A DNA stretch of 64,000 nucleotides from Eledone cirrhosa (taxonomy: Eukaryota): positions 314,588,001 to 314,652,000 of the forward strand of contig OZ024742.1 in assembly GCA_964016885.1 (NCBI GenBank). The letters run 5' to 3'. Positions 35,141-50,637 of this stretch are shown one piece after another. The position numbers and the translations under genes are program-made. Each line of letters opens with the position of its first letter. Positions within the stretch are counted from its first letter, which is position 1. The notes under the pieces were generated by a model that saw only the letters and a list, made by a program, of their open reading frames with translations, had not been told where the DNA came from and searched no databases.

Positions 35141-35358
35141 TAACGAAGGAAATGTGGTAAGGAACCAGGTGGACCATAACGCACCAAAGTACTCAATACT
35201 TGGGGTAGTAGAGTGGGTAATAGGAACCAGTAAGACCCCGACGGCTGAGCTCAAGCCGTTTCGACGGCTAATTCTGGAATTAGCCGTCTGGAATTAGCCG
35301 TCCAGAATTAGCCGTCGAAACGGCTTGAGCTCAGCCGTCGGGGTCTTACTGGTTCCTA
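35141..35358. mobile_element. Family X fold-back element between (TA)n tracts
   Basis: Near-perfect hairpin 35221-35358; each arm carries GAAAC-GGCU(ugagcuc)AGCC-GUC. Confidence 0.85.
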
Positions 35359-35992
35359 TATATATATATATATATATATATATATATATATGTGTGTGTG
35401 TGTGTGTGTGTGTGTGTGTGTGTGTGTGTGTGTGTGTGTGTGTGTGTGTAAATACTAATATATTTATTATCATACTTTCTTATTACCTTGCCATTATTTT
35501 TTTTACCAAACATTCTTAATCGGTCTAGCATGAACGCAAATTATTTGTTGTTACTGAAAATAAGCTCTTTTTTCACTCTTGATACATATTCTGTCTGTAT
35601 ACTCTCGACTGCAATGTTTTATTCATATAGTGGGTTATTTTGGTTGTAACATTTCATAATGACCACAATCTCCTTCTTACTTCATGGCTTGCGCACAGTT
35701 TGTGGCTGACTGTCGGGTAGACCTTAAGCGGCACATATAGCCTGTCTGACATGGAAACTTAATATGCAATTCTCGCTCAATGTACTTACTTCTTTGGGAG
35801 AATATACCTATAATTCAGCTTTCCACATACTCTGTAGCGCTGATTCTGCTAGAAAGCTATTCTTCAGAAACGTTACCTTAAATATATACCTGTGGAATAC
35901 TAAATCACTTAAACATTAAATCATGGACTGCAGGTTCACTCAATAGAACAAAAAACGACTGTCGTCGAATCAGCTAGAAGATATATATTAAT

Positions 35993-36179
35993 AATTGTTT
36001 CTACTTTTGGCACAAGACCAGCAATTATCCCAGTGTATTACTGGTACTTTATTTTATCGACACTGTAAGGATGAAAGGCAAAGTTAACCACGGTGGGATT
36101 TGAATTCAGAACGATCATAAAGGGCTGTAACTCTATGCTGTAAAGCATGGCGTCCGACCCTCTACCGATACTGCCAATC
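35993..36179 (-). mobile_element. tRNA-derived SINE
   Basis: Core match. Confidence 0.9.
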
Positions 36180-36581
36180 TAAAGAATGGATTGCTCATGC
36201 GTGGAGATGCGATGACATAGCTTATGAAATAGGGTGAATACCCTTAAAGACGGAAAAAGAAGTTGTCATCTGCCGTTATTATTTATTATTTTGTTTTCAT
36301 GGACAGTTTCAAGCGAGTTTCCGCATCATGTTTCTTAAATGCTGCATACCATTTGTATTATTTTTGCAGGAAATGGCATATACTTCTTCTAAAAGTGCAC
36401 TGCATCAGTATTCGTTTCTTATTATATTTAGCTTCAAATTTCTGGTGTTCTTCATTGTTTTTTTTTTTTAAACGTAGACTATGCGTAACATGAAAGGTGA
36501 TATTTCATGTAGGGGTGTATGACTTGCGTACTCGACGTTAGGTGTCAGGGTTCGTTGGTAATTAACTTTAATTCATCCGTA

Positions 36582-36796
36582 AAGGAGGATAGATTGGCAG
36601 AATCAGTAGAGGGTCGGACAAACTGCTTTGTGGTATGTAGTAATGGTTCAAATCCCTTCAAGATCAACTTTACTGTTCATACTCTCGAGATTGATAAAAT
36701 TAAGTGCCAGTTAAGATCTGGGGAATGAGGGAGTGGACGTATTTGATTCCCATCTCAGCTAAAATTGCTAAACTTGCGACTAAATCAGAAACCATT
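36582..36796 (+). mobile_element. Diverged SINE
   Basis: gattggcagaatcagtagagggtcgga...ggttcaaatcc...ttgataaaattaagtgccag. Confidence 0.7.
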
Positions 36797-37698
36797 ATTT
36801 CATTTGTATGTATTTAAATTATTTAGGAGAAAAGCCTTATTTTATGTGGAAATGTAATAAGCAAGTAATCAAGGTTTCACACCTTTTGCAACGCTTATAT
36901 CCCAGTAATTATCATAGTGTGCGTGTGCGCGCGTGTGTGTGTGTGTGTGTGTGTGTGTATGCGCGTGTGTTTGTGTGTGTGTGTGTGTGTGTGTGTGTGT
37001 GTGTGTGTGTGTGTGTGTGTGTGTTTGCTTGTTTGTGTTTGTGTGTTTCAATTCAAGCAAGTTCTCTCTCTAACCGTGATGAATCTAGTTAAACTCATAA
37101 AAATATGTTTATTCATTCAGATGAAATGATATCTGTTTTATGTTTGAATTGTATTGATTCATTGTGAATCAATGGTATAGTTCTCCTTGCATTTATGAAG
37201 GAATGTTCAATTAAACATTTCACGAGGTTATGCATTTTGAAACGTTAATTGTCTTCAATGTTTGTTGAGGTTGTTTGAATAAGAGAAAAACAAACATAAA
37301 TATGTTCGTGATAAAAAGTTCATTTATATTATTGGACAGCGTGCATGTTATTTGACTTGTATAGCATGATGACATGAAAGAGCTGGCGTTGCGGGTATAT
37401 TGATAAAAATTTCAATTTACGTAAAACAATTAAAACATCTCTATGTATAAAGAAATCATGATATAATTTCACGTGATTATTGATGAATCAGTTAGTCAGT
37501 AGATTAAAATTTGGAATAATTATTTGCATTATTGCCTTATGCAGACCCATGTCTCGAGAGTGTAAATAGGTTTCATTTCGTTTATAAATGCGATATTTAT
37601 TTGAGGTCTTTAGAATGAATAATATGATTCTGGCGCATTCTTTTCCTTGCAGTGCACAATAGTATCATATTTACACATAATATAAACAATTAAGCATT

Positions 37699-37858
37699 GG
37701 ATTGGCAGTATCGGTAGAGAGTCGGACACCATGTTTTATGATCTGAGTTCCAATCCAGCCGAGGTGAAATTTGTCTTTCATCCTTACGGGGTGATAAAAT
37801 AAAGAACCCGAGGTGCAATGGTATAATTGCAGGCCTTGTGCCAAAAGCAGAAACAATT
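37699..37858 (+). mobile_element. tRNA-derived SINE
   Basis: Head, core and tail match. Confidence 0.85.
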
Positions 37859-47850: not shown

Positions 47851-48450
47851 GTGCGTACAACGCATATAAATGTAAAAAAAACCACGAATATACCACCAAC
47901 ACATCAAACCAACCATAATACTAAAATAAACCGCAACAAACCACCACCTCCTTCACATATAACAAGTCGAGTAAATTCCACACCAAAGTTGACTAACTCC
48001 CCTTATATAATATTCACGAAAGGTTGTTACTGTGGAAACAAAAGAAATTGCCCGTTAAAGGGAAATTGTCTTATTAATAACATAGTATATAAATGTAAAA
48101 TTAGCACTAAGGACTCAACTTATTCATATATAGGAGCCACGTCTAACCAATTTAAAGTAAGATTTAATACCCACAAACATAGTTTTTAAAATGCCGCATT
48201 TGCCAATACAACATCCTTGGCTGAAACAATTAATAATTATAGAAAAAAGAATATCGATTACAACCTGACCTGGAGTGTGCTCAAAAGGGCCACCCCTTAT
48301 CAAAATAACAGATATAAGTGTAGATTATGCTCGCAGGAACTTTTTGAAATAATGAAATCTAAGGATATCCTATTAAATAAGCGACAAGAATTAATTATAT
48401 CTTGCAATCATAAAATTAGAAGAACTTACAAATATTATAAACCTAATTAA
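47851..48450 (+). pseudogene. PLE GIY-YIG endonuclease with Cys motifs; one in-frame TAA at 48187
   Basis: CYC..KRNCPLKGNCL.NNIVYKC...YIGAT..FKVRF..H..SF*...W.VL...Y....CRLC..E...I...LLNKR.EL..SCNH. Confidence 0.9.
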
Positions 48451-49110
48451 TATACACCTTACACTTATATTTTACATATTATTATAATTAGTTTTCTTAA
48501 TTTAGTTAACGTATAATTAGTAATTTACTACAGAGAACTTCATAATTTTATTTCCCTCTTACAGCTCTCTTTTCCTAAAATTAATACCTAAAAGTATACA
48601 TATAAATTAATTTAATTTCCTATTATGAATCTAGATTCCTTGTAGTCGATATAATATTGGTATTTCTCACTACTACACTTATCCCAACATTTTATTTTCC
48701 TTCGTTTTTAACAACATTCTTTAATAACATCTAATTCTTATTTATCACATCCATATGAATTAATATAAATGTATCCCTATAAGTATACCTATCAATTAAT
48801 TTAATTTCTTGTTATGGATCTAAATTCCTTGGTATTTCTCACTAATACCTTTACCCTAAAATTTTACTCTCCTTCGTTTTGTACCCTTCACTGGCTTGAC
48901 CTCTTTTCATCCCCAAAGTATTCTTTTCATTCAAAGTATTCTTTCCATTCAAAACATAAGTCTGCATTCCTCTACCCCTAAATTACATTTCTACTACTAC
49001 TATTCTATCAACTTGACCTCTAACTACTTTTCTATTGGTAAATTCAAAGCCTGTTCCCAAACAGACCTATTATATTACATCTTTGTTGTTTTTTTTTCAA
49101 TAAACAAATC

Positions 49111-49246
49111 TCATTATTTCTGAAGACAGCATATATATGTGAAGGTATGTATATTTCCTCTGATAGTTTGTAATATTTTTACATAGATCTATATGATATA
49201 CATACCAACACACATATATATCCTAGAAACGATCGTAAAATGATGA
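49111..49246 (+). ncRNA. Hammerhead ribozyme with ~100-nt extended stem II (family E)
   Basis: UCAUUAUUU-CUGAAGA-[long hairpin]-GAAAC-GAUC-GUA-AAAUGAUGA: 9-bp stem I, palindromic stem III ACGAUCGU. Confidence 0.9.
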
Positions 49247-49330
49247 ATCTTTTAATATAAGGAACTTGTTCTTTGTTTTTATTCATTGTTTTTATTAATT
49301 TATATATATATAGTTTTAATATAGAAGAGC

Positions 49331-49375
49331 TTCTACAGGACTAGAACTGTTTCATTCGTGAGAAATCATCAGGAA
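49331..49375 (-). ncRNA. Hammerhead ribozyme (family A-like stem II, longer stem III)
   Basis: UUC-CUGAUGA-uUUC(ucac)GAAu-GAAACAG(uucuaguc)CUGUA-GAA. Confidence 0.75.
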
Positions 49376-50262
49376 TAACTTATATATATATATATATATA
49401 TATATATATATATATATATATATATATATATATATGTTATTCCTGATGATTTATATATATATATATGCGGGTTTATCTGAGTGTGTTCCTGAATGTGCAT
49501 TTGATCTGATTGATAAAATACATAGCCGATAATCTATTGTACCTCGGATTGATTAGCAGGTGAATTAATAAACGTTAAGTGGACGTAGCTAAAAGTAGGT
49601 GAAACAAAATGTCCGTCAGACATTTTCATTTCTAAAAGGTCTATTAAATAAGTGGCAGAGTGACACGTAGACTTATTTGATCGATTATTTTGTAGACCAT
49701 GCGGTTAATGATTTGGCAAGCAAAAAATCGATACATTCAAAGGAAATTTACAAAATATATATATGTATGATATTTTTTTCGAAATGCACTAATATATTCT
49801 TATCTACACACACACACATACACGAACACGAATATATATATATATATATATACATATACGTGTTTGGGGGGTATGTATGTATGTTTCTATGAATGTATGT
49901 ATTGATTTATGATTGTTTCTATATACGCATTTAGTTATGCATTTCTGTTTGTGTTTACGAGCAGGCTCGTAAGTTATTTGGTAACATGTTTCCTTCAAGT
50001 ACAGCATCAAATTAACGATATATTCATTTACTTTGCGATTTTATCGGTTTTATCAGTTTCTCTCTTCTCTCTCTCTTTCTCTCTCTCTCTTTCTCTCTCT
50101 CTCTCTCTCTCTCTCTCTCTCTCTCTCTCTTCTCGCTCTTTTTCACACCCTCCACACACCCATACACAAACACACACAAGCACACACACACGCGCGCACA
50201 CACCTTTTTCGTTTGCATTAGCCTATCCCATTAATAGGGGTGTAGGTTTCATATATCATTAT

Positions 50263-50637
50263 ATCCGTCGAAACGGATTGGGCTCTGCTGTCGGGGTCAT
50301 ACTTTTTCCTATTTTCCACTCTACTACCCTAAGTATTGAGTACTCTGGTGCGTTATGGTCCATCTGGTTCTTTCCCACAATTCCTTTCTTATATATATAT
50401 ATATATATATATATATATATATATAACAAAGGAAATGTGGTAAGGAACCAGATGGACCATAACGCACTAGAGTACTCAATACTTAGGGAAGTAGAGTGGG
50501 AAATAGGAAAAAGTATTACCCCGACCGCAGAGCTCAAGCCGTTTCGACGGCTATTTCTGGACTAAATTAGAATTTTTAGTCCAGAAATAGCCGTCGCAAC
50601 GGCTTGAGCTCTGCCGCCGGGGTCGTACTTTTTCCTA
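50263..50637. mobile_element. Family X zig-zag element with three alternating arms
   Basis: 50263-50391 is inverted against 50425-50550 across (TA)n; second turn at ~50560-50580. Confidence 0.85.

Follow-up and report, generated by a model that had tools for sequence, protein, structure and literature searches.

Half-hammerhead hairpins in Eledone cirrhosa identified by sequence as miniature head-to-head insertions of a Hydra-clade Penelope-like retrotransposon

What produces hairpins that carry the 3′ half of a hammerhead ribozyme on both arms and the other half on neither? The question is raised by a window of 64,000 nucleotides from Eledone cirrhosa (assembly GCA_964016885.1, contig OZ024742.1, positions 314,588,001 to 314,652,000 of the forward strand), in which a preliminary description had placed three such hairpins. 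All three are present, at 35221-35358, 39046-39162 and 50503-50637; each arm does read as the 3′ half of a hammerhead with GUC, and CUGANGA is indeed absent from them. The hairpin at 39046-39162 pairs fully save for a single mismatch (39090) and the centre base and, folded with its tail, reaches -127 kcal/mol (z -17.7, with 0 of 200 shuffles equally stable). The one at 35221-35358 has perfect arms of 58 nt with a 22-nt centre between them, and the one at 50503-50637 is a member of a more diverged subfamily. An additional feature is common to the three copies: a tail of 80 nt is found on one arm only, and (TA)n adjoins both ends. By their sequence, these hairpins belong to a Hydra-clade Penelope-like retrotransposon (PLE), of which they are miniature insertions in head-to-head arrangement. 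With a probability of roughly 80%, they go back to a cut (TA)n target of which each end primed cDNA on the element RNA, both cDNAs running off the 5′ end of that RNA and then being joined head to head. The copies in the window, including three further partial ones (the last three lines), are given below relative to L034, a long copy used as coordinate reference.

35143..35278, minus strand: tailed arm of copy 1, 98.5% identical to L034:3151-3286; holds the 3′ end of loop II, the stem II 3′ strand, GAAA, stem III, the GUC cut site, the stem I 3′ strand and the 80-nt tail, and adjoins (TA)n
35279..35299, no strand: junction of copy 1, a filler of re-copied arm sequence, presumably made by slip-back synthesis
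35300..35356, plus strand: untailed arm of copy 1, 98.2% identical to L034:3150-3206; stops at the fixed inner site and adjoins (TA)n
39048..39105, minus strand: untailed arm of copy 2, extending exactly to the putative RNA start (L034:3149); base 39106 can be read either as a copy of the cap or as the other arm's base
39105..39240, plus strand: tailed arm of copy 2, 97.1% identical to L034:3151-3286; predicted ribozyme cut after 39143
50426..50567, minus strand: tailed arm of copy 3 (diverged subfamily); extends to 13 nt inside loop II, which is the upstream limit
50568..50574, no strand: 7-nt junction filler sequence of copy 3
50575..50635, plus strand: untailed arm of copy 3, 86.9% identical to L034:3146-3206; adjoins (TA)n
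50262..50386, plus strand: solo tailed arm of the copy 3 subfamily, tail-to-tail with copy 3 over a single (TA)n tract
33144..33257, plus strand: older, decayed solo tailed arm, 77% identity
57869..57903, minus strand: solo untailed arm, its stem III lost between two short direct repeats; adjoins (TA)n

The parent element was found at loci in which the inverted arms lie far apart. These hold an intact open reading frame (ORF) of 719 aa (L034:3380-5536) with a reverse transcriptase (RT) plus, at the C terminus, a GIY-YIG endonuclease, in which YRDD stands at residue 348 and VIY...YIG at 591. The features of the Hydra clade are present, namely DKT (not DKG) at 117, the CxCX5C linker at 572, CxxC at 670 and CxH at 698, these two around the conserved E and N, and residue 37 carries RWR, a conservative change, where the clade has RWK. 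The clade placement is based on these defining motifs and on a by-eye comparison with the published alignment; searches of Pfam and PDB with the ORF gave no match. Both ends enter TA repeats in the fetched loci and in raw reads. As in the Hydra-clade PLEs of Craig et al. (2021, PMC8557442), there is a short single ORF with C-terminal GIY-YIG, DKT, CxCX5C and CxxC/CxH, a (TA)n target and a hammerhead near the 3′ end. Unlike the elements in the parts of that paper cited here, the present family has RWR, a variant ribozyme core with a loop II of ~35 nt, a tail of 80 nt where 30-40 nt is typical, and miniatures that dominate its copy number; the Hydra-1_Obim sequences printed there differ, so the two families are distinct. 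Three other assignments were rejected: membership in Naiad, as the endonuclease is C-terminal; a miniature inverted-repeat transposable element (MITE) of the DNA transposon kind, given the unequal ends, variable centres and RT-encoding parent; and a retrozyme of the type without long terminal repeats, defined by tandem repeats, a complete hammerhead per unit and no protein (bioRxiv 10.64898/2026.07.22.740005), given that the miniatures are single inverted pairs with half ribozymes.

The ORF has 2,054 homologs of similar length. Most of these (~40% identity; e.g., P0089, P0091, P0099, P0115) lie on metagenomic contigs of 2-3 kb, about one element long, and few on contigs of 0.5-3.7 Mb; going by these matches, the Hydra clade seems to be much bigger than the few dozen families so far described. 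A different Hydra-type ORF is nested within an arm of the present family (L032:2194-3549, minus strand), and fragments of a second, diverged Hydra-type PLE ORF, 39-53% identical to the L034 protein, occur in the window itself (47024-48444, plus strand). The landmarks of L034 are listed here, the TATA-like box and initiator having been assigned by their consensus sequences.

L034:3106-3112: ribozyme core
L034:3120: TATA-like box
L034:3145 and 3149: initiator-like A
L034:3158 onwards: stem II 3′ strand
L034:3189/3190: predicted cut
L034:3206: inner end
L034:3286: outer end
L034:3380: ATG

A comparable TATA/initiator pair has been noted in the pseudo-long terminal repeats (pLTRs) of Adineta (PMC3846280).

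Near-perfect hairpins invite the suspicion that they are fold-back products of the assembly or the library. Genome-wide counts, made throughout with exact sequence patterns, gave 35,626 matches in the 3.0-Gb genome for a 25-mer of the arm versus 0 for its reversed control, and at least 11,217 loci for a pattern spanning the centre. In raw short reads from another sample under the same species label, the two ends run into (TA)n in 2,907 and 7,398 reads, and a few strand-changing (inverted) joints occur at the loop II position; contigs from two other organisms also carry one or both ends. A ~16-fold step in read depth at loop II was set aside, since most reads end there at one position, probably a library enzyme site. 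The read check covered ends and joints generally rather than reads across the three window loci, which is what an artefact still has in its favour. An artefact as source of the hairpins is unlikely, and its chance close to negligible, as an independent sample holds both ends and inverted joints, the two arms show point differences and end unequally at fixed sites, the fillers are unique, and mirroring does not extend into the flanks.

The outer ends of the two arms are fixed, lie 80 nt apart and are paired one-to-one: one tailed and one untailed arm were found in 27 of 27 short pairs from an unselected 18-Mb stretch and in all 33 scorable long pairs, two more complex loci being omitted. The tailed arm is the longer in 15 of these long pairs, the untailed arm in another 15, and three could not be resolved. 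In 11 long pairs the untailed arm extends further upstream yet has no tail, so neither arm can have served as template for the other. A sample of 53 miniatures contained 43 with two scorable arms (in the remaining 10, one arm was too short or altered); the tailed arm is longer in 21, the untailed arm in 15, and the two are equal in seven. Among the 43 there are 33 distinct centres, which bears out the earlier suggestion that differing centres reflect independent events, and none reaches beyond 13 nt into loop II. The centre had been placed where stem II would be. It does lie near the stem II 3′ strand, but within loop II, just 5′ of that strand, and not on the stem II hairpin.

These centres bear on how the palindrome formed. 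In the preliminary description, nascent cDNA snaps back on stem II and self-primes, which would leave loop II and the stem II 5′ strand in the centre. That strand is missing from all 43 centres; snap-back on stem II is thus disfavoured and, since in 11 long pairs neither arm can be a copy of the other, the proposal was not sustained. A wider form of fold-back, with self-priming on stem II or at a short inverted repeat close to the stop, and a second nick trimming the copy to the inner site, predicts the observation that the two arms are of a common haplotype in 35 of 43 miniatures (shuffled mean 7.1, maximum 17 in 10,000). It also agrees with the 1-3 nt overlap at many junctions, in a sample enriched by earlier patterns, and self-priming has been proposed for palindromic PLE junctions (PMC3846280). 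The haplotype sharing implies that a single RNA, or a single source gene, is the usual origin of both arms and, taken alone, leaves fold-back standing. Besides the missing 5′ strand, what argues against this route is that the untailed arm is the longer in 15/43 short copies and 15/33 long pairs (the 11 above being clear of any tail), that loop-less double-G centres were found and 147 loci carry an untemplated G on both arms, and that a few copies mix arms of two subfamilies (e.g., C1:13301140). Fold-back is already contradicted as a general route and improbable as the explanation, and could account for a minority of copies.

The arms come to a sharp stop 9-13 nt into loop II. Of 101 unselected arms, 81 end no more than ~13 nt from stem II and the remaining 20 extend past 46 nt, and genome-wide arm counts fall from 18,307 at -9 (L034:3149) to 4,431 at -14 (3144), the second pattern covering main alleles only. 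The template base outside 3149 is T or C; before the A at -9, however, the untemplated base is G in 3,045 arms versus A in 599, whereas a control position 3 nt downstream has 28 G and 72 A among the matches listed (first 100 of 825). As an allele, G occurs in only seven long copies. Reading 23 G loci in context showed about 13 at which the other arm could not have supplied the G, and G on both arms was found at 147 loci, versus two with A on both (eight read in context). An untemplated G at the 5′ ends of full-length L1/SVA copies has been ascribed to cap copying (PMC3287187), and the junction G at the loop II stop likely preserves a copied RNA cap. One double-G centre was also found at the -13 stop (L201). 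The long copies do not show a cap G brought in by strand transfer (7 G versus 6 A), a result that neither supports nor excludes strand transfer. A 3′ splice site at the stop was rejected, as the arms retain bases upstream of AG.

The same data bear on whether the miniatures are instead a self-amplifying non-autonomous family, similar to short interspersed elements (SINEs) or MITEs, in which master hairpins are recopied and the stop is the master's centre. The very high copy number and the recurrence of some centres (5, 4, 2, 2 and 2 of the 43) would suit such a family. The number of distinct centres would not, and the commonest centre is shared by copies that differ in subfamily haplotype and in which arm is the longer. 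Fresh run-off is what a G added to both arms beyond the templated start suggests, and we consider amplification from masters scarcely probable.

The half of the ribozyme that the miniatures lack is present in the long copies as YUGANAA, with 64 U3·A8 and 36 C3·A8 cores among the matches listed (first 100 of 2,085); the canonical CUGANGA (C3-G8) occurs in eight copies genome-wide. A search for non-palindromic copies with CTGANGA had been proposed as a check, and the long copies do hold a complete hammerhead, but nearly always with the variant core. As the ribozyme is present in this form, a test for the absence of CUGANGA would have misled. The unconstrained minimum-energy fold of L034:3090-3212 is the three-way junction of a type I hammerhead, with GAAA and NUH in order around an unpaired core; in two other subfamilies the fold needed constraints and stem II formed incompletely. 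U3-A8 is a described PLE hammerhead variant, and the minimal PLE hammerheads of Schistosoma (Cervera and De la Pena 2014, PMC4209133) share with the present family this variant, a long helix II and opposite-strand pairs, there 100-700 bp apart. They differ from it in that helix III is full here and the miniatures hold the 3′ half only. In vivo evidence is stated in the cited part of that paper to be absent.

A second stop lies at the predicted ribozyme cut. A pattern for very short arms has 482 matches versus 42 for its reversed control. By eye, the first 49 ultra-short loci comprise 17 with both arms ending at GUC^G with filler, nine blunt or ambiguous there, six with one arm at GUC^G, 11 that stop ~3 nt before the cut and six others. 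Across the genome there are 74 loci in which the two arms, with a filler of 2-7 bases, both stop at the cut, as against 0 loci for the position one base upstream and 1 for that one base downstream. The fillers are mostly A/T (G at 5/34 ends, by eye); the addition of G is therefore confined to the start site, and A/T fillers are as expected of an uncapped end. Two of 30 loci have, in place of the mirror arm, distant ORF sequence attached to the arm that ends at the cut, an outcome that later deletion of a hairpin centre would not yield. Both main arm haplotypes contribute cut-site loci, and the core of origin is indistinguishable in them. The junctions at GUC^G likely preserve a ribozyme cut of the RNA.

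It is also conceivable that two-ended priming is right and that the stops are not RNA ends, having arisen by stalling at RNA structure (loop II, the base of stem III) or by later deletion of the hairpin centre in DNA, so that an active ribozyme would be unnecessary. Palindrome centres are prone to deletion, and the class stopping ~3 nt before the cut would be in keeping with either process. Moreover, PLE hammerheads cleave poorly in vitro (PMC4209133) and, for Anolis, the cited part of PMC11167929 has no RNA reads ending at the cut. The single-base precision of the cut-site junctions, the untemplated additions at both stops with G at the start site only, and the joining of cut-site arms to non-mirror DNA speak against it; it is an unlikely explanation that nevertheless retains some weight.

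In the two-ended run-off reading that we prefer, transcription would start within loop II, at the A in TYAGTC, which lies 29 nt past the TATA-like box, and because of this start the capped RNA would hold only the 3′ half of the ribozyme at its 5′ end. The element enzyme, probably a dimer, would nick both strands, with one cDNA per site made mostly on one RNA. These cDNAs would copy 58 and 138 nt plus the cap, be trimmed or extended by a few bases and then be joined, the joining also providing second-strand synthesis. Priming at the downstream repeat of an uncut tandem transcript would give the long arms, and priming on the 3′ product of the ribozyme the ultra-short class. Multimeric transcripts could plausibly come from a tandem array (L198-L200, G000:C1:91472500-91494500) that has four full 3,542-bp units as well as a partial one and ends in an untailed arm in inverted orientation. 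A Poseidon PLE has been shown in vitro to cut and extend both strands, with starts at two internal sites bounding the tail, and a dimer is predicted (PMC11167929).

Several points weigh against this reading. Its start site, cap, cleavage, dimer and joining are all deduced from DNA junctions, and the haplotype sharing is what self-copying predicts likewise. Most arms reaching -9 are without G, for which reason trimming is required, and the -13 stop has no G excess (9 G among the matches listed, first 100 of 1,653). For the ribozyme, the L034 fold is no more stable than shuffles (z -0.56), a long copy has no Rfam hammerhead match, the C3·A8 cores contain a mismatch, 11 of the 49 ultra-short loci stop before the cut, and ~5/50 cut-site loci among the matches listed could be CpG-decayed members of that earlier class. 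Finally, a second, Neptune-like PLE family shows no pile-up of stops in 30 loci. A more demanding version, to which we lean with some reserve, treats the junctions as in vivo fossils of PLE integration: a single dimeric complex would in every case set off priming at both target ends, using two fixed sites of one RNA, and would join the two cDNAs without a target-primed second strand. In this version a PLE hammerhead whose core is non-canonical would also cut its RNA in the germline, and the promoter within the loop would convert most insertions into perfect hairpins of ~55 bp.

Earlier publications already describe inverted ends and tails as well as palindromic junctions, ribozyme pairs on opposite strands and the use of two start sites, and what is described here is a new family, an extreme variant of a known element class. 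The pLTR-plus-tail structures of Penelope and Adineta likewise have head-to-head 5′-truncated copies, a tail at one end and a palindromic junction (PMC3846280, PMC2377424, PMC8557442). Here, in contrast, they are cut down to ~200 bp by the fixed stop, and where the cited passages of those papers suggest self-priming or endonuclease resolution, the present junctions point to two separate cDNAs. With Poseidon PAc in vitro (Frangieh et al. 2024, PMC11167929) the family shares extension of both strands, two internal starts bounding the tail and an AT-rich target; the parts of that work cited here leave later steps open and have no reads ending at the ribozyme cut, whereas genomic junctions fall on the cut in the present family. 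Untemplated G at full-length 5′ ends is a likeness to L1 (PMC3287187). The formation of PLE inverted repeats and tails and hammerhead cutting in vivo are stated to be open in the cited passages of PMC8557442, PMC4209133 and PMC11167929. A full-text literature search, with subscription papers largely outside its reach, found no paper on PLE junctions marked by cap or cut site, or on such miniatures. In twin priming of L1, two target ends prime on one RNA and are joined by microhomology, as would be the case here; the L1 cDNAs cover different parts of the RNA, whereas here one and the same part is copied into both cDNAs from fixed sites, so that a palindrome results.

Thousands of independent junctions thus favour one model and provide base-exact predictions for the start, the cut and the two priming sites. 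They also describe a retrotransposon route to more than 11,000 MITE-like hairpins, which repeat annotation may misfile. If transcribed, the miniature hairpins could feed double-stranded-RNA pathways.

The Neptune-like family has the same head-to-head-plus-tail form in (TA)n with its hammerhead ~190 nt away, so the inversion is independent of the ribozyme. Its end motif has 12,629 exact genome matches, and in the window it is represented by the following features.

8329-12504, 58159-58500 and 61150-61336: Neptune-like PLE family
8601-8628, minus strand: its canonical hammerhead
8875-9900 and 11324-11809, minus strand: its ORF remnants

Other inverted-pair insertions, unrelated to these, lie within or around (TA)n at 4563-5120, 12763-13117, 13168-13826, 15851-16162 and 41016-41366, and canonical minimal hammerheads at 13305-13328 (minus), 13653-13676 (plus), 16134-16157 (minus) and 53090-53113 (plus); both probably belong to other PLE families. 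Against Rfam, the window gave only hairpin-driven microRNA matches, all below threshold. Tail-to-tail palindromes centred on a single (TA)n tract were seen at 15859-16130 and 50261-50554 of the window and at L006, where a miniature sits within the mirrored tail-to-tail flank. A 425-aa ORF with a P-loop, at 26737-28011 on the plus strand, resembles a PIF1-type helicase of Helitrons.

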